Source of the DNA: Candidatus Hodarchaeota archaeon
GTDB lineage: Archaea; Asgardarchaeota; Heimdallarchaeia; Hodarchaeales; Hodarchaeaceae
Direction: 5' to 3'
Length of the DNA: 19,207 nucleotides
NCBI GenBank assembly: GCA_016840035.1
Contig: JAEOTC010000187.1
Location: 1-19,207 of the forward strand
A program made the translations under genes and the position numbers. Shown here piece after piece: positions 530 to 18,707 of the stretch (position 1 is the stretch's first letter; every line of letters begins with the position of its first letter). The notes beneath the pieces were generated by a model. That model worked only from the letters and a program-made list of their open reading frames with translations, searched no databases and was not told where the DNA came from.

Positions 530-740
530 GGATGGATTTTCAGTGATCACGATCTTTTACACCAATTAGAGGAATTTTTATGATGGTATGGTACACCGAG
601 ATGCTCCGTGTATTTCTACACACTCCCACGAATCGCACACGGGCTATTGTTTCTAAGCAATGTGGAACTGGGCAGTTCTTTCTTGTTCTACAAGATATTA
701 CTTCAAAGAGTCGTGAAAAGTGTTAGGAATGACTTTTAGG
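530..740 (+). repeat. Structured intergenic element, copy R1 (diverged)
   Basis: Carries the blocks TAGAGGA, GTGTAtttcTACAC, CACGAATCGCACACGGGCTATT, TGTGGAA and AAGAGTCGT shared with other copies. Boundaries approximate. Confidence 0.85.
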
Positions 741-766
741 ATAAAAGAAGGAGAGAGCTTTGTTAA

Positions 767-1750
767 TTATCCAAAATTTCCAAACATTCTCGCTATCATC
801 TGCATCTGAGCTTTATCAGTCAACATATAGGCCCTACCAGGCACCATTATTGTATTTTCAGAAATTCCCATAGATACATGAGTTATAGTAAATCTTGTGG
901 GGTGGAGGTTCTGATTAGAAAGCCAATCACGCACACTTATCGGAGTTCCTGTATAAACAGGCATCGCTGGAACTGTAGGCCCGCTCGGATCCCCAGAGAC
1001 AGGTCTGGTGTGATAACCTAACTGTATCTTCCCATAGTGTTTTGCATACCATCCAAAAAGATCTTGATTCAGTCGATCACAGGTATGAAGCAATCCTACC
1101 TCATCGATAAGAAAATAAAGCATATTTGGCTCCAAAAAGGAACGCCAACCTGGTTTAATTAAGCCTTGCTCAATATGAGTAATCTTAAAGCGATTCGAAT
1201 CCAAATTCTTTGTTTTTAAATAGTCCTTTACCTTAATTTTCTTATTGACCATAAATGACTGAAAGGAGCGATCTACGTCAATTGATTTCGCTGACTTCCA
1301 AGAGGAAATTACAGGTAAAAGCACATTATGATACCAATGTAACGCGGCTTCTTCAGGAGGTGAATAAAATAAAATCTCAAACCCAAGTGAAGCTTTGCTG
1401 TCTAGTTTGAGATTTGAGAAATGCTGAGCATAATCTTCAGATTTACCGCCAGCATAAGTCTTTTCTGAAAGCTGAAGGTCTCCCTTTGAGTTACGGATTG
1501 GCTCCAGAGTGTTAAAAAGCTCCAAAAGTCGTATTGTGTCTTCTAGGAGTTCACTTCGTAGATTAAGAGTGATCTCCTCCTCTTTTTCAAGACTTCCAAT
1601 TTTTTCATAATTTGCTTGAATCCGGGGTACTAACTTAGAGATTTGCTGTTGAAATGCCCCAATTTCATACAGTGATAGAACTTCAAGAATTGAATCTATT
1701 AGAAGTTTATGAATACTTAGATTTGTAAAGGTGATTTCTTGTTTTCCCAT
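767..1750 (-). CDS. Hypothetical protein (327 aa) with a duplicated ~45-aa C-terminal module
   Basis: Long ORF with ATG start and upstream GAGGGAAAG. Internal repeat IKVKDYLKTKNLDSNRFKITH / ISVRDWLSNQNLHPTRFTITH. Confidence 0.85.
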   Translation of the reverse strand: MGKQEITFTNLSIHKLLIDSILEVLSLYEIGAFQQQISKLVPRIQANYEKIGSLEKEEEITLNLRSELLEDTIRLLELFNTLEPIRNSKGDLQLSEKTYAGGKSEDYAQHFSNLKLDSKASLGFEILFYSPPEEAALHWYHNVLLPVISSWKSAKSIDVDRSFQSFMVNKKIKVKDYLKTKNLDSNRFKITHIEQGLIKPGWRSFLEPNMLYFLIDEVGLLHTCDRLNQDLFGWYAKHYGKIQLGYHTRPVSGDPSGPTVPAMPVYTGTPISVRDWLSNQNLHPTRFTITHVSMGISENTIMVPGRAYMLTDKAQMQMIARMFGNFG

Positions 1751-1898
1751 ATCTTTCCCTCAAAGCTGCTCTCACCTTTACCTTTCTCTATTTTAATCTT
1801 TCTCATGATTTACTTTCGACAGAATTTTCAGCAAATGATAAAAATCTGGAATGATGAGTTTTATTCCACTGAAATATTGAATTAAATCAGTCAACTTT

Positions 1899-2140
1899 GA
1901 ATCTTGGGAACTTTCGTGAAAGATATCCCGTTGATAGAGGAGTTTTCGGATAAGAAATACGCGTGGACGGACGCTGACAGGCTCAGTGTTTATTACACAC
2001 TCTCACGAATCGTACACGGGCTATTAACCTTAGATTAGTGTGGAAATGGTCAATCCTCTCGTTTTTTTTAGGAAAAATAGCCTTCAGGAGTCGTTTAAAG
2101 TGTTCTGAAGAGCTTTCTGGTCTTCTGTCTGGTAGATTTC
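1899..2140 (+). repeat. Structured intergenic element, copy R2 (near full length)
   Basis: GGGA..TCCCGTTGATAGAGGAG, ACGCGTGG, GGGCTATT, GTGGAAA, TCCTCTCG, AATAGCC, GGAGTCGT, GTCTGG. Bases 1952-2023 are identical to 6166-6237. Confidence 0.95.
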
Positions 2141-2184
2141 TTTTTTTGATGAGTGATATCACTTTTATCACCTTGCACTCTTCA

Positions 2185-2198
2185 AAGTTTTATAAAGG
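2185..2198 (+). promoter_or_regulatory. Putative archaeal BRE/TATA promoter of the surface protein gene
   Basis: AAAGTTTTATAAAG upstream of ATG 2278. Confidence 0.4.
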
Positions 2199-2277
2199 AG
2201 CGAAGGATATCATCAAAGTGATCAGATTTGTGAGTTGTACGAATCCTCAGAAATTCGCTCTAATCGGTTTGACCTTT

Positions 2278-5088
2278 ATGAAATTAAGTAAAAAACCAGT
2301 GATAAACGTAAAATTGAATGTTCTAATCATTTTATATATCTTAGTGTCTTCAGGCCTTTCCACGTGGTTTGTTTTTGTACCCCCTCAGACACATCCTCTA
2401 GCATCCGATCCATTATCACCTAATAGGAATTTTGCTCTTCCTATGTTTTCCTATCTGACCCATAGCGCTATTTTCATTGATGGCAATTCTGCATTCATTT
2501 CGAATGCTACTGCTGAATCTTGGCCTGGAAATGGTTCTCTAGCTTCCCCCTATCAAATTAATAATTTCAACTTTACAGGTTCTTCTTCTGAAACTCTCAT
2601 TGAAATTCGGAATACTGACCTTTTTTTCAATATAAGTAATTGTTTCCTGGATCGGGGTAAATATAGCATTCTCTTTACTAATGTCACAAATGCGGTTGTT
2701 TATAATAATACTATTCAAAGAAGTAAGGGTCTGGTAGGCCAAGGGGATGCGATTGTTCTGTCTTCCTGTCTTTATAGTAATTTTACCCACAATCGGATTA
2801 TAGGCCATGACCATATCGCATTTAGCATTAGTAATTCAGATTTTCTTACTATTTCCTATAATAATATTTCTCACAATCGTTATGGAGGTATTTATCTCAG
2901 TAGTTCCCATAACAATACACTTACTTACAATTCTCTCCTCAATTCTTCCAATAACGGAATCTCCCTTGGAGCTTCACGAGATAATCTAGTGTCTAATAAT
3001 GTGCTCGAAGATCAAGGAAAAGGGCTCTACTTATCTTCTGGTTCTAATACCAATAATATTACTCATAATCAGCTCGGGAATATTGGTGACAACGGTATTC
3101 GTATTACCTCCTCATATTCCAACCGTCTAATTAATAATACTCTTAATGAAACTGCCCGGAATATCTTTCTACAGACTGCTCCGAATAATACTCTTATCGA
3201 TAATCATCTTGCTGTTTTAGGTATCCATATGTCTGGAGATACTCTAAAGGATTATCTACAAACCCAAGTCGTAAATAATTGGATTAATAACCGTCCCCTG
3301 ATCTTTTGGCAACATATCAATGGAGGGATTGTTCCATCTGCTGTTGGACAGGTAATATTACTTAATTGTACATTTATTGAAATCTCTAATCAAAATCTGT
3401 CTAATCTTACAAGCGCCTTACAATTTATATTTTGTAAAAACATGACTATTACTAATAACACTGTTTCTGATGCTGATTATAACGGCATCTATCTCTATAA
3501 TACACATATGAGCCTTATCCAAGGAAATAATTTCTATCGACCCGTTTCTATAGGCATTTACGTTGTTTATTCCCATAACAACTCTATTTTCGAAAATTCT
3601 ATCATTGAATGTGAAGACACCAGCTTGTATGTGTGGGGTTCTCATCAAAATAATTTCTCCCAAAATGCAATTACTCGTTCTCTTGGGTGGGGAATGCTTA
3701 TTGGTCAAGCAAATAATAATACAGTGATGTTGAATCGGTTCCAGAACTCTTCTTTTGAAGCTATTTACTGTTATGATTCAAATCGTAACCACATTGAACG
3801 AAATGATTTTCTTTTCAATAATCTCGGTAGTTCTCAAGCTTTTGATGACCAAACCAATCCTTCCTTGAAGAATATTTTCTCGTATAACTACTGGAACACT
3901 TGGACTACTCCTGATAATGATTCAGATCGGATAGTGGATCACCCATATGAGATTGGTGGATCGGCCAACAATCAGGATCTCTACCCATTGACGCTTCCGT
4001 ATCTTCTATTTGTACATAAGGTTACACCTCCCATTTTGGTTAATCCCAACGGAGGAGAAATTTTATCAGGAATGATTACGATTCAATGGGCGATGTCTAT
4101 TGATTCTTGGGATCACAACATTAGCTATACCCTTTACTATTCTTCTGACAATGGTTCTTCATGGCATTTACTTCAGACTGGTCTATCAGTGACTACTTAT
4201 GATTGGGATACAAATACAGTTGCTGATGGTTCTGAATATCTGATAAAAGTTGTTGCTAATTGCTCTGAAGGATTATTCTCGACTGATTTTTCTGATAGTC
4301 CTTTTATAATAAAGAATTTGAAGCATGTATTATCCATACCTCATGTTCTCTATCCTAATGGTGGTGAAATCCTGTCTGGGGAGATTTCCATTCATTGGAA
4401 TACTGCCACTGATTCATGGAACCATTTAGTGCTATATAGTATATATTATTCTTCCAATAATGGCTCTACTTGGAGTTTACTCACGTCTGATGTTGTTTCC
4501 GATGTGTATAATTGGAATATTTCAGCTTTGGATAAAGGAAATTATCTTATCAAGGTTGTAGCCAATTGCATAGGTGGTTTAACTACTGCTGATATTTCTG
4601 ATAATACTTTTAGCATAACAGATATAGATCATAGTATTTCACCTCCACAGATTATTTATCCCAATGGGGGAGAAATCCTTTCAGGTAATGTTCAATTTCA
4701 ATGGACTGAGGCTGTTGATTCACTCAATCATCCAATTACTTATGATCTCTACCTTTCGTATGATAATGGTGTTTCTTGGTTTGAATTGGGGAGCAGCCTA
4801 ATGACTTCTAGTTACTTGTGGAATTCTACAAGTGTTGCTGATGGGGGAACTTATTTGATAAAAATTCAAGCTACTTGTTCTGAGGGATTTATAGGTGAAG
4901 ATATTTCTGACAATGTTTTTTCAATTCAGAATGTTCTCAAGACTACAACGGAATCTCCCACCGTTCCACCAGAGACCTCAGCCACTTCAACAACCACAAC
5001 TACTTCTGACCGAAGTAGTCCCTCTTGGTCTTTCATTTTAGTATTTATTTCCTTACTCGGTCTTTTCATATCTAATAAGCGTGACTGA
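2278..5088 (+). CDS. Cell-surface protein: N-terminal TM/signal, NosD/pectin-lyase-like right-handed beta-helix, three PNGGE Ig/FN3-like domains, Ser/Thr linker, C-terminal membrane anchor
   Basis: Repeated GIYLxxSxNNxIxxN motifs, GNGSLASPYQI, three (N/Y)PNGGEILSG repeats, and TTTESPT..PSWSFILVFISLLGLFISNKRD tail. Start moved from 2038 (GTG inside repeat R2) to ATG 2278, just before the hydrophobic segment. Confidence 0.9.
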   Translation: MKLSKKPVINVKLNVLIILYILVSSGLSTWFVFVPPQTHPLASDPLSPNRNFALPMFSYLTHSAIFIDGNSAFISNATAESWPGNGSLASPYQINNFNFTGSSSETLIEIRNTDLFFNISNCFLDRGKYSILFTNVTNAVVYNNTIQRSKGLVGQGDAIVLSSCLYSNFTHNRIIGHDHIAFSISNSDFLTISYNNISHNRYGGIYLSSSHNNTLTYNSLLNSSNNGISLGASRDNLVSNNVLEDQGKGLYLSSGSNTNNITHNQLGNIGDNGIRITSSYSNRLINNTLNETARNIFLQTAPNNTLIDNHLAVLGIHMSGDTLKDYLQTQVVNNWINNRPLIFWQHINGGIVPSAVGQVILLNCTFIEISNQNLSNLTSALQFIFCKNMTITNNTVSDADYNGIYLYNTHMSLIQGNNFYRPVSIGIYVVYSHNNSIFENSIIECEDTSLYVWGSHQNNFSQNAITRSLGWGMLIGQANNNTVMLNRFQNSSFEAIYCYDSNRNHIERNDFLFNNLGSSQAFDDQTNPSLKNIFSYNYWNTWTTPDNDSDRIVDHPYEIGGSANNQDLYPLTLPYLLFVHKVTPPILVNPNGGEILSGMITIQWAMSIDSWDHNISYTLYYSSDNGSSWHLLQTGLSVTTYDWDTNTVADGSEYLIKVVANCSEGLFSTDFSDSPFIIKNLKHVLSIPHVLYPNGGEILSGEISIHWNTATDSWNHLVLYSIYYSSNNGSTWSLLTSDVVSDVYNWNISALDKGNYLIKVVANCIGGLTTADISDNTFSITDIDHSISPPQIIYPNGGEILSGNVQFQWTEAVDSLNHPITYDLYLSYDNGVSWFELGSSLMTSSYLWNSTSVADGGTYLIKIQATCSEGFIGEDISDNVFSIQNVLKTTTESPTVPPETSATSTTTTTSDRSSPSWSFILVFISLLGLFISNKRD
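4015..4930 (+). repeat. Three tandem ~102-aa Ig/FN3-like domain repeats inside the surface protein
   Basis: H-x-(V/L/I)-(T/S)-x-P...PNGGEILSG...W...D...Y...S(D/N)NG.SW......Y.W......G.YLIK..A.C..G....D.SD..F.I at ~306-309 nt spacing. Confidence 0.85.
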
Positions 5089-5143
5089 AACTGAAAGATT
5101 CTCTTTGATTGGCCTTCTATTCTTCCATTTCCTTTGCAAGAAT

Positions 5144-5284
5144 AATCGCACAAGGGCTATTGTTTCTAATCAATGTGGAAATCCTCCGTCCTCTCGTTTT
5201 CTAGAAGAAATAGCCTCAAGGAGTCGTAAACGTGTGTGAATATAATAAAAAGAGAATTCGGGTCTTATGTCTGGTGGTCACTGC
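5144..5284 (+). repeat. Structured intergenic element, copy R3 (5'-truncated)
   Basis: AATCGCACAAGGGCTATTG..TGTGGAAA..TCCTCTCG..AATAGCCTCAAGGAGTCGT..GTCTTATGTCTGGTGGTCAC. Confidence 0.92.
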
Positions 5285-5349
5285 TTATTGGTGATATCGT
5301 GAAGAGTATCTAAAGTGTGTTTTAGGTGTTTACGGGATCTTCGTCAAAA

Positions 5350-5757
5350 TTAATAAAGGTAGGTCTTTATTTTTAAATTCTGGATTGGAGGTAAATTTTT
5401 TTCGGTAGTATGTAGGACCAGTTTCTCATTTAAGGCATAGGCGATAACCAGACAATCAAAGTATGATAGAATGCGTCGATATTGGCATTTTAAACCTCCT
5501 GCTTTTAGGAGAGTATCATTCGTAATAGGGACCAGTACGAGGGGATAATTCAACTGTAAGGCACTTATACTGGCTTCTGCGAAAGATTTTCCTTTTGCAA
5601 TGCATAAATGGTTAAATACCTCTACTAAGATGGGGGAAATGACATATGCTTCAGTTTTTTGGTGTTTAATTTCTTGCATTAATTTTGTTATTTCTTTTGG
5701 TTCATCTCTGGTAAAATGTAGAGTCAGGGGTCCTGTATCAAGACAGATGGCTTTCAT
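5350..5757 (-). CDS. vapC: PIN-domain ribonuclease toxin (VapC family)
   Basis: N-terminal CLDTG, conserved E (ILVEV), LSYFDC and LHTTE. 135 aa. Overlaps the upstream AbrB-type gene by 4 nt. Confidence 0.88.
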   Translation of the reverse strand: MKAICLDTGPLTLHFTRDEPKEITKLMQEIKHQKTEAYVISPILVEVFNHLCIAKGKSFAEASISALQLNYPLVLVPITNDTLLKAGGLKCQYRRILSYFDCLVIAYALNEKLVLHTTEKNLPPIQNLKIKTYLY

Positions 5758-5996
5758 TTTTCTTCTAGCTCCAGTTCTTCTTCTCTGGATCTTTTCAGAA
5801 TTTCCATCATTTCTTTTGTGGTTAATGATCTGTTCTGAAGACTTTCAATAGATTCTACTGGAACAATTCTCAACATTCCTTCATCCTCAATGACTATTAC
5901 CTGATCACCATCCTTTAATCCAAATTTTTTTCGAAGGTTAGCAGGGATAGTGATCATCCCTCTATTTGTCACTTTTACTATTCCATCAAGTGTCAC
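5754..5996 (-). CDS. vapB: AbrB/MazE/SpoVT-family antitoxin (VapB)
   Basis: KVTNRGMITIPANLRKKFGLKDGDQV is a classic AbrB swapped-hairpin signature. Acidic C-terminus. Confidence 0.9.
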   Translation of the reverse strand: MTLDGIVKVTNRGMITIPANLRKKFGLKDGDQVIVIEDEGMLRIVPVESIESLQNRSLTTKEMMEILKRSREEELELEEK

Positions 5997-6028
5997 ATCA
6001 AATCACTTAGCAAATAAGTGAATATGCA

Positions 6029-6044
6029 AGTATTTAAGCTTTTT
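6029..6044 (-). promoter_or_regulatory. Putative BRE/TATA promoter of the first vapBC pair
   Basis: Minus-strand AAAAAGCTTAAATA about 35 nt upstream of the 5996 start. Confidence 0.5.
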
Positions 6045-6111
6045 GTTTAGCGATTTCCTTATCTCACATATAGTCTTTTAGGGAGAAAATATAGATTGAA
6101 GTGAACGAAAA

Positions 6112-6348
6112 CGAGTGCGGGGATGTTTCTTCAAAAAAATCCCGTTGATAGAGGAGTTTTCTTTAAAGAAATACGCGTGGACGGACGCTGACAGGCTCAG
6201 TGTTTATTACACACTCTCACGAATCGTACACGGGCTACTAAATAAAATTTAGTGTGGAAATGGTCAGTCCTCTCGTTTTCTTCCAACAAGAGCCTCAAGG
6301 AGTCATCAATGTGTGTTTCTTCTGATTTTATGTCTGGTGGTCACTTTC
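6112..6348 (+). repeat. Structured intergenic element, copy R4 (near full length)
   Basis: GAGTGCGGGGAT..ATCCCGTTGATAGAGGAG through TATGTCTGGTGGTCAC. 72-nt identity with R2. Confidence 0.95.
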
Positions 6349-6375
6349 TCATTTTAAAATCAATGAATTATAGTT

Positions 6376-6590
6376 TCACCATCTTTCTGCCCGTTTTTTC
6401 CTCCGAGGATGCGGTTTTCGGGTCCGAAACATACTGAGCTTCTTACGTGGCTTATCCCCTTTAGTCTTCTTCTTATAATGGACGACTTCCCCCCGTTTTA
6501 ACCGTCTTCCCATTTTTTTCCCGTTCCCTGTAGAGGGCCTGATATTTTTGAATCATCAGACCGTTTCTCACCTTTCCTATGTCTAATCAT
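6376..6590 (-). pseudogene. Decayed, frameshifted small HNH endonuclease-like gene
   Basis: Two frames join as MIRHRKGEKRSDDSKISGPLQGTGKK / MGRRLKRGEVVHYKKKTKGDKPRKKLSMFRTRKPHPRRKKRAERW. This resembles the KKLGRxLxxGEVVHHxxxxKxDNxxxNL pattern of HNH_3-type nucleases, but with catalytic residues altered. Confidence 0.5.
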
Positions 6591-6639
6591 CCTTACTATG
6601 GTTCTCTTTACCTTTTTCCTTATCCTTTTGATTTCTGGT

Positions 6640-6663
6640 GAGTCGAATTCAGCTGAATGACTC
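6640..6663 (-). terminator. Inverted repeat downstream of the hydrolase gene
   Basis: GAGTC-GA-ATTCAG|CTGAAT-GACTC, about 15 nt after the stop at 6678. Confidence 0.3.
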
Positions 6664-6677
6664 GGTTATTGTAGATT

Positions 6678-7280: not shown

Positions 7281-7765
7281 TATGTTCTTTTCCTTATTAA
7301 ATGTATCTTACTTAGTTTTTAATTGGGTTATGAATTTAGATCAATGCCTAGCTCTGATATATTGTCAACTTCTTGTCATTCAAAGCTATATTTACTCTTT
7401 TGTAAGATCATTCAAGGTACAGTTATTACTTATCAGTTATATTGAAGAAATTAATTTTATTCGGTGCTTAGACATATCCGACAAAATTAGCGTATTGTTT
7501 TTCTCCCCAGATCTATAATTTTTAATGAAATATCTACTATTATAAGAGAGTGTTAATTGATTTACAGACATAAGAAAATACCGATTAATTTGGTGTGTAC
7601 TATAGAATAAACTGATCCCCTATTAATACATTGTCATTGATGAAAGAGTAGATCTAAAGCTAGCGAGAGCTCTCCCTCAATAAAATCGACAAAACAAAGA
7701 AATTATTGATGGGGATTGAGCGTACGTAACGCCTTTTCCTATTAACTTAATACAGAATAAATCAC

Positions 7766-7836
7766 TCTTTAGCTTTAAAGAAGGAAAGTTTCATTCCTCT
7801 CGTGTTTATGTAGAATTAGCCTCCAGGAGTTGTAAT
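7766..7836 (+). repeat. Structured intergenic element, copy R5 (internal fragment)
   Basis: Hairpin TCTTTA-GCTT-TAAAGA, then GGAAAGTTTCATTCCTCTCG..TAGCCTCCAGGAGTTGT. Confidence 0.8.
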
Positions 7837-7849
7837 CATAGATGGAAGG

Positions 7850-7894
7850 GATAAGAATTATATATGAGATATGTTTCATGTGATATGAGATATG
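7850..7894 (+). promoter_or_regulatory. TATA promoter with direct-repeat operator of the second vapBC pair
   Basis: GATAAGAATTATATAT, with ATATGAGATATG at 7862-7873 and 7883-7894 directly before ATG 7896. Confidence 0.65.
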
Positions 7895-7895
7895 A

Positions 7896-8141: not shown

Positions 8142-8173
8142 GTTTCTATTATTTTCGTGGTTAAGGTGTAAAA

Positions 8174-8578: not shown

Positions 8579-8582
8579 ATCC

Positions 8583-8835
8583 ACGGTAACCCTGTGATGG
8601 TAGACAAGTGCTGGGATAATTCGTTGAGAATAATCCCGTTGATAGAGGTGCGTTCTTTAAGGAATACGCGTGGAGGTTTTCCGACATGTTCAGTCTATTT
8701 TAGCACTCTCGCTCCTCGTACATGGTCTATTTCTTACTAGAAAGGTGGAAAGGGTCAGCCCTCTCGTTAATTGACCTCAAAGAGTCGTAGTGATGTGTTA
8801 GAATTGAGTGTTTGTCTTCTGTCTGGTGGCCGTTC
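8583..8835 (+). repeat. Structured intergenic element, copy R6 (full length)
   Basis: ACGGTAACCCTGTGATGGTA..AGTGCTGGGAT..ATCCCGTTGATAGAGG..ACGCGTGG..GTGGAAA..CCTCTCG..GAGTCGT..GTCTGGTGG. Starts 4 nt after the vapC stop. Confidence 0.93.
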
Positions 8836-9625: not shown

Positions 9626-11554
9626 TTGTTTAAGTTGCTATCAATTATGAGAACCAATTTTCCAACTGGTACACAGCTTAAATTAGTAGTTGCAGCCGTT
9701 GTCCTTGTTTTCTCCATATTAGCTATCACCATAGAATTCATTCCCTTCAAATCCGATAATTTCGTTTTGTCTGAACCTGATTTGACTGGTCATCTCCCCT
9801 TAAGTGCTGCTATTCATCAATCAAAGATAACTACAGATTTATATCCTCACGATCTAAGTGTTGAAGAGCTATCTCAGCTCCTGTGGGCATTACAAGGTAC
9901 CACTCATGGTCCAGGGTTTCGAACCGTTCCTTCTGCAGGTGCAACCTATCCGTTAAAGATTTTTGTTCAACATAATGGAAGTTCTTCTCTCAGTCGCGGA
10001 TATTACAGCTACAATTCCGATGCACACGAATTAAAGTTACATTTTTCTATTATTAACAAATCTCTATTAGTTCCTACTCTTTTACCTGAGGATCAAAGCT
10101 CTATTGCGAATATTACGAATATCTTCTACGTTTTTGCAGATTTTAATCGAACTACAGATCGCTATGGCACAAGAGGAATTCAGTATGTCCATTTAGAGGT
10201 AGGTCATGCTCTTCAAAATTTCCTTCTCCAACTTACCTCTTTGAATTTAAACACCTGGGTAATTTCAGATTTTAATACGACACAAGTTAAAGCATTGCTT
10301 CACACATCATTACAACCTCTTCTTATATTGCCTGTTGGTCAAGATCAGGGTAATTTAAAGAGGTTTTCGAAATTAGACGTTCGATCCGTGATAACTACAG
10401 AAGAAATGACTGTAGAGCAAGCTATTGCGAAACGTAAATCCACTCGAGACTATGTTAGTGGATTAGTTCCCTTTTCGATTCTTAGGGATATCTTGAATGA
10501 TTGTATAGATATTGCTTTTCCTATAGAAAATGTATCCATTATCGATCTTCGTCTAGTTGTTGGTAAAGTAAACGGATTATCTATGGGCATGTATTCTTAC
10601 TCCTTGATTAATCGTTCTCTTAAGCAGTTTCACGAGGGAGATGTACGTAATTCCTTGAGAAAAGTAGCATTAGATCAATCTTGGGTTGAATCTGCTCAAC
10701 TCAGTCTAATTATATCTGCTAATATGACTTGGATGGATCAACAATCTGATCCTAATCTTTCATATCGGAGATTGATGTCGAATATCGGGATGATCGCCCA
10801 AAATATTTATCTTAAATGTGCTGCTCATTCTCTGGGCACCGTAGTTATCGGTGCGTTTAGTGACGGGGATGTTGCTCAGTTATTAGAGATTCCTAACTCA
10901 CATACTCCTTTTTATATTCTTCCAGTTGGATTAATCCCAGCGTTTTTTGATAAAGAAACTGGCCCCTTTGGCTCTTTGTCTGAAATTGGCCATTATATCG
11001 GATTATTTTCCTTCGTTTTATTCTATACTAGCTTTTACCTGACCCTCCCTGTATTGAAACGACGGTTAAGACGGCAAGTTTTATGGTCTCATTACTTTTC
11101 TGGCTCCCTCCTCGCAATATCTAGTGTATTTCATTACATGGTTTTGCACGGCCATGTAAAATCTATTTCGGAGTTCTCAGATGTTACTATTTATATATCA
11201 GCTGTTGTTGATTTTCCAAGCGTATTTTTTGCTTTTCCTACAACCCGTTATGATGTGGGCCAATTTCTTGCAACACTTGGTTTCATTTCTGGGACGATTT
11301 TTACTGTTTCTGGTTTTTTTATGGTCTTAGAAGTTGGCTCTTATCGAAGAATCCTGCGTACTATTCACAAATATTCTGTTTTCACTACTCTTATTTTCAT
11401 TATAATCCATAATCTATTTAATGGAACCTTTCTTGTGATCAAACCTCATATATTCCTTTATCTAAATATTTTATTTTTTACTTTGTATTTCTTCATTCAC
11501 AATTCTTTCGAGGAGCTGAGACAATATCGAAAACACCTCGGTTCTGCTAATTGA
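9626..11554 (+). CDS. Tandem SagB/ThcOx-family nitroreductase domains fused to a C-terminal cytochrome-b-like membrane domain
   Basis: ELSQLLWALQG, RTVPSAGATYPL, RYGTRGIQYVHLEVGHALQN. Second domain AKRKSTRDY..AQNIYL..LGTVVIGAF. C-terminal TMs with two H-x13-H motifs. Start may be ATG 9647. Confidence 0.88.
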   Translation: MFKLLSIMRTNFPTGTQLKLVVAAVVLVFSILAITIEFIPFKSDNFVLSEPDLTGHLPLSAAIHQSKITTDLYPHDLSVEELSQLLWALQGTTHGPGFRTVPSAGATYPLKIFVQHNGSSSLSRGYYSYNSDAHELKLHFSIINKSLLVPTLLPEDQSSIANITNIFYVFADFNRTTDRYGTRGIQYVHLEVGHALQNFLLQLTSLNLNTWVISDFNTTQVKALLHTSLQPLLILPVGQDQGNLKRFSKLDVRSVITTEEMTVEQAIAKRKSTRDYVSGLVPFSILRDILNDCIDIAFPIENVSIIDLRLVVGKVNGLSMGMYSYSLINRSLKQFHEGDVRNSLRKVALDQSWVESAQLSLIISANMTWMDQQSDPNLSYRRLMSNIGMIAQNIYLKCAAHSLGTVVIGAFSDGDVAQLLEIPNSHTPFYILPVGLIPAFFDKETGPFGSLSEIGHYIGLFSFVLFYTSFYLTLPVLKRRLRRQVLWSHYFSGSLLAISSVFHYMVLHGHVKSISEFSDVTIYISAVVDFPSVFFAFPTTRYDVGQFLATLGFISGTIFTVSGFFMVLEVGSYRRILRTIHKYSVFTTLIFIIIHNLFNGTFLVIKPHIFLYLNILFFTLYFFIHNSFEELRQYRKHLGSAN

Positions 11555-11656
11555 AACAAGTTTATTGAAGAAATATTTTTGTCCAAATATTCCAAGGGAG
11601 AACCTAGAAAAGACGAATCTATTTTACCATCTGTTTAAAAGCCATGGGGATTGGCG

Positions 11657-11920
11657 ACGATAACCATGAGATGGTAACCGAGTGCTGGGATCATTCTTGA
11701 AAGCTATCCGTTGATAGAGGAGTTTTCTTAACAGAAATACGCGTGGGGGTCTGTCGACATGTTCAGGGTAGTTTAACTCACTCCCACTACTCACACACGG
11801 AGTACTAATGACATTTTAATGTGGAAATTGTCAGTCCTCTCGTTTCCTAGAAGTAATAGCTTATAGGAATCTAATAGCGTGTGTTCGTGAGTTTTCTGGT
11901 CTTATGCCTACTGGTTAACT
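11657..11920 (+). repeat. Structured intergenic element, copy R8 (full length)
   Basis: ACGATAACCATGAGATGGTAACCGAGTGCTGGGAT..ATCCGTTGATAGAGGAG..ACGCGTGG..GTGGAAA..TCCTCTCG..TCTGGTCTTATG. Confidence 0.93.
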
Positions 11921-12002
11921 TTTATTTTTTCTAAGAGTCTCCCACTATTAAGAGTTAGAAATATCCTACTGGAATCGTTCTTTAGTAAGCGTAATCAGCT
12001 TC

Positions 12003-12518
12003 CTAATGCTCGGGTTTGGAGGAAGGGAAATTTGGAGTTAAAGTTGCCAGTAACTCTTCTGGGTTGGGATTCGATAGTAATTGGTTTTTCGCTTGACTTA
12101 CTCTCTGACGTCTGGCTTCCCAATATTTCATGGACTCCACGTCCTCCTCCTCTACTTTTTCTCCCTTGCTTACTTGAGTGTTTATTTTAGTGTAAATTCC
12201 TGATAATTTTTGATTAATTTGGTTTTCTAAGTGTATCAAATACTCCTGAAAGCACTCAGAAATTGTTGGATCGGATTCAAAATAGCTTAAAATGTGTTTT
12301 AATATTTCCTGTTGAGGTTTTTGAATGACTTGCCATAAAAGCCGGGATAACGGATTAATTTCGAAATATAATGGTTTTAATGCCTCCATTAGCTTGTTTA
12401 ACTGCGAGGCATCCAGTCTTGTCCTCCCTGACGTTGTCTGCACAATCACGCTGTCCTTGGCCTCATTTACTTCCATGGTTATATGTTCTGTTAATTCCAT
12501 TATGCAAGCCTCATTCAT
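12003..12518 (-). CDS. Hypothetical protein (171 aa, helical/coiled C-terminal half)
   Basis: ORF with normal composition, bounded by repeats R8 and R9. No recognisable motif. Confidence 0.75.
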   Translation of the reverse strand: MNEACIMELTEHITMEVNEAKDSVIVQTTSGRTRLDASQLNKLMEALKPLYFEINPLSRLLWQVIQKPQQEILKHILSYFESDPTISECFQEYLIHLENQINQKLSGIYTKINTQVSKGEKVEEEDVESMKYWEARRQRVSQAKNQLLSNPNPEELLATLTPNFPSSKPEH

Positions 12519-12574
12519 CTTAGACCTAGAGTGCAGTCAGGCTTTAAGATTTTCTTATCTAGGTATGTAACTCG

Positions 12575-12685
12575 GGGAATTATCCCTAGCATTGGTCAGG
12601 CCTTTCGCTTTCTCAAAGAAATAGCCTCAAGGAGTCGTCAAAAGTGTTTTCGTGAGTCTTCTAGTCTTATGTCTGAAGGTTTCTT
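12575..12685 (+). repeat. Structured intergenic element, copy R9 (3' half)
   Basis: GGTCAGGCCTTTCG..AGAAATAGCCTCAAGGAGTCGT..TTCGTGAGTCTTCTAGTCTTATGTCTG, preceded by a mini GGGA-ATTA-TCCC hairpin. Confidence 0.88.
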
Positions 12686-12718
12686 ATTTCACAAGTTCGT
12701 TTCTACAATCATAATCAC

Positions 12719-13780
12719 TTAGGAAATCCATTCCGATGATCTGGAAATTAACCATCGAAGTTGAAAATCCGTGGCTATTAAGCTAATCTGATATACTGTC
12801 ACTCCCCATGCATCTAACGCCATACTAAATGAATCTATCATGATTTTTTGAAATATTACCCAGCCTGCTGTGATATTAGCTTCAGCTAGAGGTCCTGTTG
12901 TTAGCCAACTGTAACTAGGACTAAGTCCGTCTTCTAGTATTCCATTTAGCCCTGTTCCTATGTATTTTGTCCAGTCGCTTCTAATGGATAAGTATGTGTA
13001 ATTCATTTCCTCAAAGGGGACTGCCCATGCGATATAGATTATGGAGATCCGTGGTTGTCCTCGATACTCGGTATAATATTTTATCGAAGTAGTATTGATA
13101 ATTGCGCGAGTTACCCCCCCATAGCTCGGAATTGTCCAATCTACATATGAATTTTCCGTTCCTGCAAGTGATCTTGCTTCTTCTATCAAATTCGAATTTT
13201 CCAGATTTTCGATGGCAGCTAATCCTCCCTCCGCAGTTGTATTTCGGAGTACTTTCTTATCATAGAAGTGGAAAGAAAACTCTTTTGATCGCCCGATCGT
13301 GTTGTTAAGATAACAAGAGGAAAGTTCAAGAGATCCCCATGTACCCGCCATACTCTTCGGCCAGGACCACTGATTATAGGTAATGAGCAAATAAGCGATC
13401 CCTGAAGCATTGGTTGTTACGCTTAACCCTAGTTTTTTTGTTAAATTAAATTCCTCTGACCATTGGCTGAACCATGAATATATGATTCCAAGGGTTAAGT
13501 TGATGAATATTCCTGGCCGTCCTTGTGCATCTCTTAAACCAGCAATGATTTCCATTTGATCCTCGTGTCGAAAGAATGATCCGCTACTATTGAGGTTTTT
13601 GACATGAATATGTTCTGAAGTATTTGTTTTCGGATTATAGAATGAGGCGGTATTTAAATCAAATACTATTTCTTCTTCGGGCTCTTTTTTTGGAAGTTGA
13701 ATACATCCACTAAGGAGGAGAATCAGACTCGTGCTTAGGACGAACAATAGTCTATAATATTCTCTTGATCCCCGATTCAT
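12719..13780 (-). CDS. Putative lipoprotein of unknown function
   Basis: Hydrophobic signal with lipobox LLLSG-C. Several NxS/T sequons. Confidence 0.82.
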   Translation of the reverse strand: MNRGSREYYRLLFVLSTSLILLLSGCIQLPKKEPEEEIVFDLNTASFYNPKTNTSEHIHVKNLNSSGSFFRHEDQMEIIAGLRDAQGRPGIFINLTLGIIYSWFSQWSEEFNLTKKLGLSVTTNASGIAYLLITYNQWSWPKSMAGTWGSLELSSCYLNNTIGRSKEFSFHFYDKKVLRNTTAEGGLAAIENLENSNLIEEARSLAGTENSYVDWTIPSYGGVTRAIINTTSIKYYTEYRGQPRISIIYIAWAVPFEEMNYTYLSIRSDWTKYIGTGLNGILEDGLSPSYSWLTTGPLAEANITAGWVIFQKIMIDSFSMALDAWGVTVYQISLIATDFQLRWLISRSSEWIS

Positions 13781-14084
13781 TATGTGATCATCCTAAGTGG
13801 ATCTCTTTTAAGCAATTCATCCTTCTTGCTTGTTGAAAGAAAGAATTGGCTAATATTCACTTCGTCTCAATATAAATACTTATCTTTAGATGGTTCACAC
13901 TTTCTTCTCTAATCTGATTTTAGGGAGTAATTTTCGAAGCTGGCTTTCGTCAAACAATTATTTACCACATTTTATCCTTCAAAAAACTTGAGAAAATTGG
14001 ATGTATTCCAATCGCAGATTCTTAAGATTTTATGATAGTTTTTTATATCTTCGTGGAATTTAAACCCACTTGAGGTAATTTCGA

Positions 14085-14975
14085 TTGAAAATTAAAGCAG
14101 TAAAAGTCATCAGTTTCTCCCCAACTGGGGGTTCAAGAAAGGTGGCTGAAACTATCGCCAAAGGTATCCAAGCCCCCATAGAATATGTCGATTTGACCCC
14201 ACCAAGTGCACGAACCGAAAATTTTCCAAAATTCACCGATGAACTCGCCATTATTTCCGTGCCCGTCTATGCAGGACGTGTACCTACCGAAGCTGCCTAT
14301 CGGATACGCAGGTTGACAAGTAACCGGGAACCCTACGGTGCTAAACGTCCACATAAAATTCCCACCGTCATTGTGGTCACCTACGGAAACCGAGCCTACG
14401 AGGATGCACTATATGAATTAGGTGACATCGTTTCGGAAGTAGGATTCCAACCCATCGCTGCTGGCGTCTTCTTATGTGAACATTCATTTAGTGTCCCTGA
14501 GGTGCCAACCGCGCATGGACGACCAGACACAAAGGATCTTGCAAAAGCAGAAGCCTTTGGAAAACAGGTCCGGGCCAAGTATGCGAAGACTGATACGATT
14601 GAGAACCTCTCCCCCGTAACTCCGCCTGGAACAAGCCCATACTCGTTATCAATGAAGGCTAATCTCACCTGGTACGACTACAGCGAATTAGCTACTCCTT
14701 ATACCAACGAAGACCAATGTACGAAATGCAGATCTTGTGTTGATGTATGCCCTACTGCCGCGATTCGAATCCAACATGTATCATCCAATCCCTCACCAAT
14801 GATTGGTTACAATCTTCGGTTGATTTCTACCGACCACAATGCATGTATCTGGTGTTGTGCCTGCGTCAAAAACTGTCCCACTGGTGCACGCGTTATGAGT
14901 CGCCGCATCCTCAAATCACAAAGCGACCTGAATAAAGGCTACTCAGACAGAAAGGAGCCTGAAACCTACATCTAG
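14085..14975 (+). CDS. Flavodoxin-like plus 2x[4Fe-4S] ferredoxin protein (EFR1-like)
   Basis: FSPTGGS, PVYAGRVP, YGNRAYEDAL, EHSF, GRPD, then CTKCRSCVDVCP and CIWCCACVKNCP. RBS GAGGT before the TTG start. Confidence 0.92.
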   Translation: MKIKAVKVISFSPTGGSRKVAETIAKGIQAPIEYVDLTPPSARTENFPKFTDELAIISVPVYAGRVPTEAAYRIRRLTSNREPYGAKRPHKIPTVIVVTYGNRAYEDALYELGDIVSEVGFQPIAAGVFLCEHSFSVPEVPTAHGRPDTKDLAKAEAFGKQVRAKYAKTDTIENLSPVTPPGTSPYSLSMKANLTWYDYSELATPYTNEDQCTKCRSCVDVCPTAAIRIQHVSSNPSPMIGYNLRLISTDHNACIWCCACVKNCPTGARVMSRRILKSQSDLNKGYSDRKEPETYI

Positions 14976-15021
14976 CCTATCACCCATGCACATTCCAAGA
15001 AAATAAAAAGTGGGCACTAAA

Positions 15022-15035
15022 TCTGGTGGTCACTT
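15022..15035 (+). repeat. 3'-terminal block of the intergenic element, remnant R10
   Basis: TCTGGTGGTCACTT, identical to the end of R4 (6333-6346). Confidence 0.6.
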
Positions 15036-15160
15036 CTTTCCAAGATTTCTCCTATCGAAATTCCACTTCACCAAGTTTCAATATTGAGAGCTCTCTCTAT
15101 GAACTTCGCTAGAAGGTCAAGGAATGGTGTTTTTTAAAGATTAAAAAAAAAGGATAAATT

Positions 15161-15475
15161 ATGGATTCAGAAAATAGTTCAGCTCTCATCGCGTATGAAA
15201 AGAGAATAGAAAATTATAGAAACTCGTTTGATAACCGTGTCATGAATATTGTAATACTAGTGATTGTAGAAGTACTCAATATCATGTTTACAATACTCTT
15301 CAGCATGTTAGAATGGCCCGAGCTGGAGGGGGTATGCCTATTGTTAACATTCATACTTTCAACGGTATTCATTTTTCTTCTGGCTGATACCGTATTTTCT
15401 TTAATACCAAAGCGGCTACAAGCCACTGAAGAGATGATTAGAGTCATGTTTGAAGAAAAGGGAAAATTAGCGTGA
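15161..15475 (+). CDS. Small two-TM membrane protein
   Basis: ATG start, two hydrophobic segments, flanked by R10 and R11. Confidence 0.75.
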   Translation: MDSENSSALIAYEKRIENYRNSFDNRVMNIVILVIVEVLNIMFTILFSMLEWPELEGVCLLLTFILSTVFIFLLADTVFSLIPKRLQATEEMIRVMFEEKGKLA

Positions 15476-15500
15476 GGTATATCACTAAGATTAGCTTATT

Positions 15501-15590
15501 CGTCCTCTCGTGTTTCATTAATCCTCTCAATTTCTTTAAGTATTCAGTAAGGAGTCGTAAACATGAGTTTGTGATGAGTACTGGTCTTAA
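15501..15590 (+). repeat. Structured intergenic element, copy R11 (degenerate 3' half)
   Basis: GTCCTCTCGT..AAGGAGTCGTAAAC..CTGGTCTTA. Confidence 0.75.
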
Positions 15591-15649
15591 CTTTCCAATT
15601 AACGTGTAAAACTAGGTAGGGGAATCACTCCAAAGAATTAAGGTTAGTG

Positions 15650-15698
15650 AAAAACTTTATATATAGAGTTAACTATTTTTGGTTACTATGGTAACCAA
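15650..15698 (+). promoter_or_regulatory. TATA promoter and palindromic operator of the HTH operon
   Basis: AAAAACTTTATATA, then perfect inverted repeat TTGGTTAC-TATG-GTAACCAA (15679-15698) centred on ATG 15688. Confidence 0.65.
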
Positions 15699-16164
15699 TC
15701 TTGGTAAATATCATCCTCTCAAATATCCCACATTAATCCAGGTGGAGATCTGGTTTCTGAAGAGAAACGCTATTTCGGGGAGAAAAATCGCTAAGGAACG
15801 TGGGGTTACCCCTGCTTTTATTAGTAAGACCTTAAAAGAAGCCAATAAACGAATCAAAATACTTTTAAAAAGCACGGCCAAAACCAATAAGATTTCTTTA
15901 GACTTCATCAGTCCAGAACATGGGTTTGCCAAAGGAAGAAGTCATATGTTTGGTATAAAAGCCTATATCACTTTCTCACCTGAAAATGGAATTCAGGTCT
16001 GGTATGTACACAAAGGTAACTGCTCAACGTGTGAAGAATTTTCTCATTGTCGTGATCTCTTAATTAAAGAATTTAAGGAGCGTAACATCAAAATTGACAA
16101 TCCCCAATTAAGACCAACTGATCTTGGGGATATTTTGCTTAAACATTTGGAGGAGTTAGCGTAA
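15688..16164 (+). CDS. Archaeal HTH transcriptional regulator with C-terminal Cys cluster
   Basis: SGRKIAKERGVTPAFISKTL is HTH-like. HxGxCxxCxxxxxC near the C-terminus. ATG 15688 preferred over TTG 15679. Confidence 0.8.
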   Translation: MVTNLGKYHPLKYPTLIQVEIWFLKRNAISGRKIAKERGVTPAFISKTLKEANKRIKILLKSTAKTNKISLDFISPEHGFAKGRSHMFGIKAYITFSPENGIQVWYVHKGNCSTCEEFSHCRDLLIKEFKERNIKIDNPQLRPTDLGDILLKHLEELA

Positions 16165-17588
16165 TGATAAGAACTCCTACAAGAAATAAATATCGTGCAG
16201 GGGGATATTTTCTGCCTGTTTGTATTAAGGCTCCCCCTCAACGTCAAAATTCTCTTTCTACCCTCGGTTCTTTAATTTTAATCTCATTACTTTTAATTCT
16301 AATTTTGGTTCTTCCTTTGGAACAGCATAATTATTCCTCTGAGCAGGTACTTATGCTAGCTCCGTATGTGTATAAAAGTAATTCCACTAGCGATCCCCAT
16401 AGCCTGATCCAAACGACTGATGGTGGGTTTGCTATTTCAGGAGTAATTAATCTCTACAACATTTCATGTGGTCATCGTTTATGGCTCGTTAAAACTGATT
16501 TAAACGGAAGAATAGAATGGCATCGTTCTTTTGGAAGAACTCTCTGTACTCGAACTCCTTTATCTCGTATGTGTGACACCCATTCCGTTGTGATTCAAAC
16601 GACTGATGGTGGTTATGCTCTTGCCTGTGATTTCAATTCTTCTAGTAATTACGGAATCGACTTCTGGTTGTTAAAAACTGACTTTAATGGTCAACCTGAG
16701 TGGAATACCACCGTTGGTGGCAGTAATGATGAGAGATTCTTTTCCTTAATCCAAACTGAAGACGGTGGGTATGCTCTTGCTGGGGATACCCAATCATTTG
16801 GTGTTGGTAAGAAAGACTTTTTCTTGGTGAAACTTGGTCCTACTGGTCGACTTGAATGGAATACATCCTTCGGCGGGAGCTTTGATGAGACTGCTTCTTC
16901 TTTAATCCAGACCCTTGATGGAGGGTATCTACTCGCTGGACAAAAAGCAACTACAGACGTAGGAAATTATGATGGCTGGCTAGTAAAAACAGACCAATAT
17001 GGATTGTATGAATGGGATCTCTCTATGGAGGGGATAGAGTGTGCATACTCTTTAATTCAAACTTTAGAGGGTAATTATGTCTTCTTAGCTCGAGAAAGTA
17101 ATTATTCTCCAGGTTGGTATTTTATGAGGGTTGACAGAGAGGGTCATAATGTATGGGATTTGCCTATACCTGGGGTTGCCGATTCTTCGCTTGTTTCCAT
17201 CATCCAAACTACTAACACTGGATATGCTATTACTGGTACTTATACTTGGCATGACCTCTTCTTGTTGAAAACAAACTCCGTCGGATATATAGAGTGGACC
17301 CGAACCTATGAAAAGGCCCAGCGCGATATTGCAAGCGATTTAATCAAAACGACCGATGATGGATATGCTCTCCTTGGATGGACCGAAGAATGGTCTAGAA
17401 TGTGGTTACTGAAAACTGATTCCCATGGTGTAGCCCAGTGGAATAGAACTGTCGGCAATTATGAGGAATATTATACTTACTTAAGCTCACAATCATCAAG
17501 CTTCCCCGAATTGAACCTCTTCGGTTTTGTTTTTTGGGGAATATTGATTTTTACCTTGATTTACCAGAACAGACGGAAAAGAATGTAA
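16164..17588 (+). CDS. Secreted, membrane-anchored beta-propeller-like repeat protein
   Basis: About 7 repeats of SLIQTxDGGYALAG...WLLKTDxxGxxEWN. N-terminal TM, C-terminal S-rich linker, TM and RRKR. Start overlaps the regulator stop (TAATG). Confidence 0.88.
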   Translation: MIRTPTRNKYRAGGYFLPVCIKAPPQRQNSLSTLGSLILISLLLILILVLPLEQHNYSSEQVLMLAPYVYKSNSTSDPHSLIQTTDGGFAISGVINLYNISCGHRLWLVKTDLNGRIEWHRSFGRTLCTRTPLSRMCDTHSVVIQTTDGGYALACDFNSSSNYGIDFWLLKTDFNGQPEWNTTVGGSNDERFFSLIQTEDGGYALAGDTQSFGVGKKDFFLVKLGPTGRLEWNTSFGGSFDETASSLIQTLDGGYLLAGQKATTDVGNYDGWLVKTDQYGLYEWDLSMEGIECAYSLIQTLEGNYVFLARESNYSPGWYFMRVDREGHNVWDLPIPGVADSSLVSIIQTTNTGYAITGTYTWHDLFLLKTNSVGYIEWTRTYEKAQRDIASDLIKTTDDGYALLGWTEEWSRMWLLKTDSHGVAQWNRTVGNYEEYYTYLSSQSSSFPELNLFGFVFWGILIFTLIYQNRRKRM

Positions 17589-17638
17589 TAGCTTTGAAAG
17601 TCATATCTCTAAGAAAATACATTAGAGGGTGTTAAAAA

Positions 17639-18508
17639 ATGAAATATAAAGTAGAAAAATTAACAGTCCTGATATTGTTACTTCTTCTCCCCTTTTTTTT
17701 GAGGGGAGCTGAGCTTACCCCTGTAACAGGGGCAAATGACCCACCCGGTCCTAATCCGATCCTCTTTCTTCACGGAATGAGTGATAATATGGGTGCTTGG
17801 GGATGGATCCTCCAAAAAATGTTCTACGAGGATGGTTGGCAAAATGCAACCGTATCCACCCCTCATTACGAATATAATTTTCCAAATTCGTCTAGTTGCG
17901 CTGCTCAAGCCAATATCGTAAATGCCAATCACATCAAGCAATGGGTTGAAACGATTTTAGATGAAACGGGTGCAGACAAGGTTGATCTTGTAGCGCATAG
18001 TATGGGAGGCTGGAGTAGTCGTTATTATCTTAAATCTCTCGGTGGAACTGAATATGTTGATGACTTTGTGAGCTTAGGAACTCCCCATGCTTATGATCCC
18101 TGGTCAGTTACCAATTGTGATGGTTTTAGTGACTTTATGTTTGGTTTAAACGATGGAGATGCTTCCCCAGGTGGGATTCTGAATGATACGCTGGGAGAAC
18201 GGGTTGATCCTATGAATACTTCCATTGTCTATTCGGGGGCTCATGTTTCTGGTAACGTAAACTATACCTCGATTTATAGTCGTGAGGATGAATATGTACC
18301 GTATAAATGCAGTTATCTTGATGGAGCTCATAATATTGAAGTTCGAGATTTAACTCATATGCAATTATTGAATGATAGAACTGTGTACAACCTCATTATA
18401 GCGGCTCTAGATGATAGGGTAAGAACTTCAGCAAGTAGCTCTGATTTTCTCTATCTCTTTAGTTCCTTCTTTGTGCTGGTGATTTTTTTCCGAAAAAGGA
18501 CTAGATAA
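17639..18508 (+). CDS. Secreted alpha/beta-hydrolase (lipase/esterase, lipase_2-like) with C-terminal anchor
   Basis: PILFLHG oxyanion motif, VDLVAHSMGG nucleophile elbow, SREDEYV (Asp) and LTHMQLL (His). Signal peptide and TM-RKRTR tail. Confidence 0.92.
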   Translation: MKYKVEKLTVLILLLLLPFFLRGAELTPVTGANDPPGPNPILFLHGMSDNMGAWGWILQKMFYEDGWQNATVSTPHYEYNFPNSSSCAAQANIVNANHIKQWVETILDETGADKVDLVAHSMGGWSSRYYLKSLGGTEYVDDFVSLGTPHAYDPWSVTNCDGFSDFMFGLNDGDASPGGILNDTLGERVDPMNTSIVYSGAHVSGNVNYTSIYSREDEYVPYKCSYLDGAHNIEVRDLTHMQLLNDRTVYNLIIAALDDRVRTSASSSDFLYLFSSFFVLVIFFRKRTR

Positions 18509-18533
18509 GACATCCCGTGTTCTCATGCAGGTT

Positions 18534-18707
18534 ATCCCGTAGCAGTCTAAGTGTGGAGATATATCGACATGTTTCGTGTCTTCCACACCTCCCACTCCTC
18601 ACACACGGGTTTTTTCTTCAGAAAAGTGTGGAAAGTTTCAGTCCACTCGTTTACTAAAAGTTGTAGTCTATAGAAGTTGTGAGAGTGTGAAGAAGTGTAT
18701 TCTAGGT
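18534..18707 (+). repeat. Structured intergenic element, copy R12 (diverged, internal deletion)
   Basis: ATCCCGT..GTGTGGAG..CGACATGTT..CTCCCACTCCTCACACACGGG..GTGTGGAAAGTTTCAGTCCACTCG. Confidence 0.85.

Follow-up and report, generated by a model that had tools for sequence, protein, structure and literature searches.

A Repeat-Separated Gene Array

The window analyzed here, which is the whole 19.2-kb contig C159 of an Asgard archaeal genome (4.3 Mb in 293 contigs), carries a noncoding repeat in nine clear copies, all on the + strand, which separate unrelated genes lying in either orientation. We designate this source genome G000 and the other genomes compared G001, G002, and so on, with C for a contig and L for a locus. 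The repeat had been read in a first-pass annotation as a large structured noncoding RNA (ncRNA) of the + strand; the analysis below identified it as rRNA-derived DNA, a displaced tail of the 23S rRNA gene, standing between the cassettes of an array. In the window, the cassette genes include two VapBC pairs and genes for a beta-helix protein, YdjM, GYD, a nitroreductase fusion, and a lipase, and no tRNA or tmRNA gene was found there. Approximately 33 repeat copies were counted in G000 over 11 short contigs, with constant orientation within each contig. The same repeat formed arrays in 4 of 21 congeneric genomes, with ~75 further copies, and DNA searches showed partial units in multiple copies in G001, G003, G006, G011, G013, and G019. 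Across the arrays, the cassettes include VapBC and AbiE toxin-antitoxin pairs, Ras-like GTPases, beta-helix proteins, and methyltransferases, and genes nearby encode Ras, RagA, RING, and Vps4-like proteins.

The Repeat Unit Is a 23S rRNA Tail

The longest copies of the repeat measured ~430-450 nt, and the unit consensus ~434 nt. When the flanks of the longest copies were aligned, the homology extended ~230 nt further upstream, and only through this extension was the rRNA identity found, because the copies in the window, being truncated and laden with insertions, are too short for Rfam: neither the whole window (E values up to 1) nor the segment 11560-11830 gave a match. The full-length unit on C162 of G000 (L002:4278-4584) matched the archaeal large-subunit rRNA family LSU_rRNA_archaea (RF02540) at model positions 2721-2973 of 2987 with 199.1 bits, and full-length units of other genomes scored 169.5, 139.3, 222.4, and 161 bits; the gathering score of the family is 50 bits, and the full-length units are thus members of it by covariance-model match. 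The truncated copies of the window aligned by nhmmer to the same unit profile as these Rfam-positive units. Consequently, what had been proposed as a new large ncRNA, similar to HEARO or omega-RNA, matched at 139-222 bits a family that is already in Rfam.

Unit positions 1-320 correspond to domain VI of 23S rRNA, with H94, the sarcin-ricin loop, H97, the H98 expansion, H100, H101, and the mature 3' end at GGGCUA. The strands of H100 are GGGAU and AUCCC, and those of H101 are AGAGGAG... and ...CUCCCACU. Positions 321-434 are a trailer, and the unit ends where the processing stem of the pre-23S rRNA ends, before a T-run. The nature of the trailer was deduced from C9 of G008, which carries the 16S gene, a 244-nt spacer, and the 5' half of the 23S gene. 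Just before the 23S gene, this spacer is complementary to the trailer, such that GCTTAAGGA, GCGGACCTATCGTC, and GTGT face TCCTTAAGC, GACGAAATAGGACCGC, and ACAC, and the leader-trailer duplex reached -71.5 kcal/mol, compared with -53.7 +/- 5.1 for shuffled trailers. Therefore, the trailer blocks of the repeat represent the 3' side of the stem through which pre-23S rRNA is processed; the partner strand lies ~3 kb upstream in a real operon and is absent from the displaced copies.

The rRNA genes of G008 also carry insertions. On C9 (L108, 1695-3919), the 16S gene spans 2225 nt compared with a model of 1478 positions, with ~750 nt of insertions, and on C8 (L100, ~18270-18700) a 337-nt insertion lies in the 23S gene near model position 2650; rRNA introns are the probable explanation in both cases.

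The boundaries of the units followed those of the rRNA. Among 118 copies, 22 began at the domain VI boundary and most others within the final 40 nt of 23S or at its 3' end, and most of the 118 shared a common right end at the end of the trailer. In ~20 copies, the rRNA match opened at about model position 2708-2721, with unrelated cassette DNA before it; the rRNA continued upstream only in C8 of G008 and C44 of G005, which are the two genuine tails. Partial units in whole genomes were located by DNA searches, since a whole-genome search with RF02540 missed even known partial copies. The units in the window are 5'-truncated copies of one 23S-tail unit and not part of a complete functional 23S gene (table 1). 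Two of them bear on how units are delimited: R3 shares its left boundary with its ortholog in G004, which follows the same cassette there, and R5 has its own palindrome of the kind found at the mature 3' end (TCTTTA/TAAAGA) in front of it, though the upstream rRNA block is missing.

Table 1. Repeat copies in the window, delimited by nhmmer with the full-length unit profile (434 positions; E values of the window copies 5e-5 to 3e-63) and by inspection of the sequence. H1 and H2 are the hairpins described in the text.
Copy	Position	Strand	Unit positions	H1	Content
R1	593-723	+	277-397	646-661	5'-truncated; H2 at ~684-701
R2	1920-2135	+	236-430		H100, H101, 23S 3' end, trailer; insertions P1, P2, P5, H1, H2
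R3	5143-5280	+	304-433		Last 23S bases and trailer
R4	6105-6343	+	216-433	6237-6253	All five downstream hairpin insertions
R5	7766-7831 (profile match 7778-7831)	+	~329-386	7766-7781	Minimal unit
R6	8582-8830	+	200-431	8730-8743	Begins in the H98/ES39 region, immediately behind the PIN gene (stop codon, 8578)
R7	11600-11916	+	145-432		Longest copy in the window; starts in the H97/H98 region, 23S domain VI
R8	12592-12681	+	342-432		Trailer only
R9	18504-18705	+	233-416	18612-18625	Adjoins the stop codons of the genes on either side (18508, 18708)
Remnant	15000-15040	+			Right-end block only (ATCTGGTGGTCACTTCTTT)
Remnant	15500-15595	+			Decayed trailer (GTCCTCTCGT ... AAGGAGTCGTAAA ... CTGGTCTTA); subdivides the 12719-18508 interval

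Array Position and Cassette Exchange

The position of an array relative to a genuine 23S gene was observed in G008. Its contig C8 ends inside the 3' part of the 23S gene whose 5' half is on C9 (model positions 2545-2987, 328 bits, cut by the contig end), and the genuine tail is followed over 52 kb by at least seven displaced units in the same orientation. Because this array of a sister species starts directly behind genuine 23S, the repeat has inherited its conserved blocks, namely rRNA helices H94-H101 and the trailer strand, from rRNA and pre-rRNA sequence, and both these blocks and their apparent long-range complementarity represent inherited rRNA and pre-rRNA pairings and not a fold of the repeat's own.

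The cassettes themselves were shared between species, being found at 83-94% identity with other neighbors; for example, cassette C (YdjM) lies between B and D in the window and is absent from G004. In orthologous cassettes, the unit downstream keeps its left boundary, and cassette-specific sequence is not reached until the extreme right end of the unit. The displaced units are co-oriented direct repeats of 130-430 bp, and the copies are mosaic. Neither BLAST end points nor the linkage of variable sites gave a sharp crossover position. Four DNA runs of a single marine-sediment study showed no clean excision product; their joints only linked different unit copies via conserved blocks.

Several further features of the arrays were recorded. 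The long "cassette" at 12719-18508 of the window in fact comprises three former cassettes with eroding separators, as two decayed remnants lie inside it. Genes for Ras-family small GTPases are recurrent cassettes in several species (L001, 461-1123; L002, 2903-4029; L100, 12654-13193 and 16198-16800), and these eukaryote-like signature genes belong to the mobile cassette pool. Directly upstream of a full-length unit on C8 of G008, an AbiEi/AbiEii type IV toxin-antitoxin pair occupies 10686-12613 (L100). Approximately 60 nt of this AbiE-side upstream flank recur beside the full-length unit on C162 of G000 (L002, 4603-4968), the trailer types of the two species being different; the partial open reading frame at 4603-4968 had no Pfam match. 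The closed genome G010 carries on C1 a degenerate 23S-tail fragment (L083, ~2877135-2880190) with the sarcin-ricin loop deleted and an H1-type hairpin in the trailer. A full 23S gene was not found in G010 with the searches used here.

Hairpin Insertions at Six Fixed Sites

The variable parts of the units are AT-rich mini-hairpins of 13-16 nt that replace native loops of 3-5 nt. They occupy six fixed sites: one each in the loops of H97 and H100, two in internal loops of H101, one at the mature 3' end, and one in an internal loop of the processing stem. In the native fold of the rRNA or pre-rRNA, every one of these sites is a loop, a bulge, or a junction. Two of the hairpins were followed closely: H1, between GGGCTA and GTGGAAA, and H2, between CTCTCGT and TAGCC. 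At every site, the insert length was bimodal, with either the native 3-5 nt or 13-16 nt and rare intermediates, and a hairpin was cleanly present or absent with the flanking blocks unmoved.

The genuine tails of G008 and G005 have no hairpins; they read GGGCTA-ACCG-TGTGGAAA and ATCGT-CAGT-TGGC and have short native loops in H97, H100, and H101. H1 was present in all seven displaced units of G008, including the unit 0.8 kb from the 23S gene, and a few displaced units, among them the full-length copy on C162, resemble a genuine tail in having no hairpins. The inserted sequences were highly diverse, with 72 distinct H1 sequences in 88 copies. Between orthologous units of two species, most hairpin positions differed and the flanks differed by ~12%. 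New 5' arms were often the reverse complement of the native purine-rich loop (e.g., AGAAC giving CTTTCTTG-AAAGAA). A mobile mini-palindrome spread over the genome was rejected as the source of the hairpins, as TTTCT-N3-4-AGAAA and three other hairpin types were genome-wide no commoner outside the arrays than permuted controls.

Covariation and Folding

The first-pass annotation had listed palindromes before GTGGAA in five copies (H1 column of table 1), inner palindromes in the GGGAT..ATCCC stem of R2 and R6, and palindromes after CCTCTCG, and all of these were found at their places. Its broader claim, that pairing is kept while the sequence changes, was examined in 42 core copies from five genomes, aligned with MAFFT without structure fitting, and it held for H1 and H2. 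In these two hairpins, 85.0% of the cells were paired, compared with 72.5% in shuffles, and 67 cells were changed on both sides, compared with 25.9; neither value was reached in any of 500 shuffles. The covariation score was 0.342 versus 0.155 in shuffles and at most 0.134 in controls with a slid partner. The pair types at H1 positions were correspondingly mixed (UA 20 and CG 12; AU 15, UA 11, and GC 6; UA 12, AU 10, and CG 8). Without any alignment, cognate arms folded better than arms swapped between copies, the cognate value being reached in 0 of 2000 resamplings for H1 and in 4 of 2000 for H2. Mutual information was high within each hairpin and low between H1, H2, and the other variable sites, and the covariation signal is therefore not simple haplotype structure. 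These results indicated that something acts on self-complementarity in the two short hairpins, as pairing is kept in them, and to this extent the reading of the first-pass annotation was supported; the large ncRNA failed the refuting tests that the annotation itself had named.

The longer-range pairings fared differently. GGCT/AGCC and TCCT/AGGA were 90% complementary with covariation not beyond shuffles (114-249 of 500 shuffles), and the proposed pairing of AGAGGA with TCCTCT and of CTCCCAC with GTGGGGG was incorrect, since the Rfam alignment places AGAGGA and CTCCCAC opposite each other, as the strands of rRNA helix H101. RNAalifold returned an empty consensus for the 42 core copies. The folding energy of whole elements was no better than that of dinucleotide shuffles on either strand (z of the minimum free energy -0.32 and -0.26 on the + strand, and -1.15 and +0.62 on the - strand), and the hairpins themselves are weak, with a mean minimum free energy of ~-1 kcal/mol. 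A bias toward G-T pairs on the + strand, which had been claimed, was absent: the mismatches in the H1 and H2 stems comprised 19 G.T and 20 A.C, and at such equal frequencies there is no sign of one strand folding as RNA. The folding energies, the weakness of the hairpins, and the mismatch counts all speak against a + strand RNA. Scoring of internal mismatches in the best stems yielded too few cases.

Search for a Recombinase or a Mobile-Element Origin

Pfam scans of ~45 cassette proteins revealed no recombinase, and no tyrosine recombinase (PF00589) was found on any array contig in five genomes that are 87-99% complete. G000 has two PF00589 genes, one XerA-like and present in all congeners, and the other an integrase whose occurrence does not correlate with the presence of arrays; in G004, which has a 35-kb array, the XerA-like gene is the only tyrosine recombinase. 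At the array edges of G000 on C28 (at 10161) and C266 (at 1445), the neighbors are ordinary Asgard genes and not recombinases. The 391-aa gene upstream of the C266 edge shows by eye a motif of the CxxCxxCC type and was dismissed as a recombinase, as was the cassette beside full-length units, which encodes AbiEi/AbiEii. One Y1 transposase copy, on C178, is unrelated to the arrays, only one fragment of a serine resolvase was present, and no IS110 element was found.

An integron identity was rejected because of the lack of attC boxes and of IntI; the R'' (RYYYAAC) and R' (GTTRRRY) boxes were absent from the ends of the unit consensus on both strands, as read by eye without an attC covariance model. 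An origin from TnpB and omega-RNA (IS200/IS605, HEARO) was likewise rejected, as no Rfam match was obtained in the window and the one TnpB insertion sequence inside a cassette array (C121 of G000, L004, 890-2311, - strand, with an intact TnpB of 417 aa) is an independent insertion: its own ends lie 115 nt from the unit, and its other copies carry no unit. This insertion sequence has a 94% identical copy on C167, and solo right-end fragments of ~75 nt occur on C220, C57, C9, and C6.

Evolutionary Explanations of the Arrays

We proposed that the rRNA-tail units serve as homology anchors and that the hairpins are palindromic insertions made at the DNA level by template switching, and we regard this explanation as a whole as probable, with considerable reservation. 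Recombination by the host itself would add, remove, and shuffle cassettes behind the rRNA operon; we suggest shuffling by homologous recombination because the repeats are co-oriented and 130-430 bp long, no recombinase was found, the copies are mosaic, and cassettes are common to several species. The hairpins would arise, and stay self-complementary, by template switching during replication, which is documented to produce perfect hairpins in rRNA genes and to preserve them (PMC8794818); of the hairpins formed, only compact ones at loop positions where they leave the structure undisturbed would survive. We infer that the hairpins are thus not the signature of a new + strand ncRNA. Several points weigh against this explanation. 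Only two genuine tails are available, both from species with a somewhat different trailer. H1 is found in every displaced unit of G008, and the hairpin still pairs with 72 distinct sequences in 88 copies, which suggests a feature under maintenance rather than an accident. None of the six sites falls in a native helix, which selection on an RNA fold explains as well as a survival filter does. The comparison of G.T with A.C mismatches is based on a small count of 39 cells. Finally, the adjacency of the G000 arrays to an rRNA operon is carried over from G008, as the 23S gene of G000 is not assembled.

The regularity of H1 in displaced copies leaves room for the hairpins to be folded recombination sites. 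Under such a reading, the units with hairpins would be attC-like sites folding as single-stranded DNA, with the hairpins recognized by a putative recombinase or nuclease, and the genuine hairpin-free tail would be an attI-like entry behind the strong rRNA promoter. The arrays are co-oriented whatever the gene orientation; the unit belongs to the upstream cassette with a constant left boundary, as attC does, and cassette-specific sequence starts only at its far right end; hairpins are cleanly present or absent between unmoved blocks, regular in the displaced G008 units and missing from genuine tails; toxin-antitoxin cassettes occur as in superintegrons; and strand-symmetric mismatches are compatible with DNA. 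Nevertheless, the consensus lacks the GTTRRRY and RYYYAAC boxes, no IntI or other recombinase lies in or beside the arrays (G004 has only its XerA-like gene), the hairpins are very weak, and neither excised circles nor precise empty sites were seen, the contig joints linking only other unit copies. We consider attC-like sites unlikely. The folded single-strand recombination substrate that the first-pass annotation had offered as its alternative is a hypothetical candidate. A wider version, in which the Hodarchaeales would have an integron-like capture platform behind the 23S gene, with cassette-borne 23S-tail mimics whose hairpins are folded recombination sites for a putative enzyme or for host repair and with the genuine hairpin-free tail as the entry site under the rRNA promoter, appears rather improbable.

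Readings based on RNA function are less favored. If the hairpins were micro-expansion segments of a functional RNA, the units would be working or recently working 23S tails and trailers swapped onto a 23S body, and selection on the fold would keep compact loop hairpins paired. This accords with the location of all six sites in native loops, bulges, and junctions, with units that begin where domain VI begins and end where the processing stem ends, both of which are boundaries of functional RNA, and with hairpin-free full copies such as that on C162, which show that tails of the genuine type do get displaced. It conflicts with the lack of any hairpin in both genuine tails, the lack of a preference for G-U over A-C, the decay of rRNA helices in orthologous units, and the lack of most of domain VI in most copies, which cannot rebuild a 23S rRNA; we hold it to be quite doubtful. 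The independent, structured + strand ncRNA similar to HEARO or omega-RNA is already contradicted and is very improbable indeed. Covarying hairpins, conserved blocks, and a single orientation throughout had spoken for it, but the 5' part is 23S rRNA and the 3' part pairs with the 23S leader, the folding energies do not exceed those of shuffles, RNAalifold gave no consensus fold, mismatches show no strand bias, the TnpB insertion sequence in the array is unrelated, and there is neither a conserved promoter nor a common 5' end, copies being truncated to every length.

Comparison with Known Cassette Systems and Implications

Genomic islands at the 3' ends of tRNA and tmRNA genes, including tandem accretion arrays, are mediated by integrases. 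The present arrays resemble them in having co-oriented partial 3' copies of an RNA gene between accessory blocks, each reaching the functional 3' end, and in starting at the target gene; C8 of G008 shows both the 3' target-gene repeats and the island abutting the intact gene. In contrast, the target here is 23S (domain VI and trailer, up to ~430 nt), the cassettes, at 0.6-6 kb, are small, the copies bear inserted hairpins, and an integrase was found neither in nor beside the arrays; the Pfam scans of the cassettes and the genome-wide PF00589 search revealed no element-encoded integrase of the kind that such islands carry. The composite islands of the staphylococcal cassette chromosome (SCC) at the 3' end of rlmH, a bacterial, protein-coding target, depend on Ccr serine recombinases and have repeats of 15-18 bp. 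These too are tandem cassettes at the end of a conserved gene with direct repeats of the gene end, and some SCC cassettes lack their own recombinase; they differ from the present arrays in their dependence on Ccr, their short repeats, and their protein-coding target, the repeats here being 23S tails.

The attC sites of integrons measure ~60-140 nt. Integrons, superintegrons, and clusters of attC sites lacking integron integrases (CALINs) share with the present arrays small unrelated cassettes that include toxin-antitoxin modules, and co-oriented, imperfectly palindromic repeats of variable length that belong to the upstream cassette; unlike in integrons, there are here no R'/R'' boxes and no IntI, the gene orientation is mixed, and the repeat comes from rRNA and reaches 430 nt. 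Archaeal CALINs have been reported as enriched in Asgard archaea (PMC9668308). The rRNA hairpins attributed to template switching (Monttinen and Loytynoja 2022, PMC8794818) are similar in their new perfect stems, multibase "compensatory" changes, and strand-symmetric process, whereas the hairpins described here lie in displaced, probably nonfunctional copies, at six recurrent sites and with a uniform length of 13-16 nt, template switching being proposed for them. No description of a 23S-tail cassette island was found in the literature searched.

Taken together, the results remove a false lead, as the repeat is rRNA-derived DNA and not a new family of large ncRNA. What is left is unusual all the same: in the group of archaea that stands nearest to eukaryotes, an island made of spare 23S tails serves to store accessory genes and to exchange them between species, with no integrase in sight. 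The spare and the working tails form a natural data set with which to ask whether "compensatory evolution" comes from selection on a fold or from templated mutation in unconstrained DNA, and the outcome matters for how much weight covariation can carry as evidence for a functional RNA.

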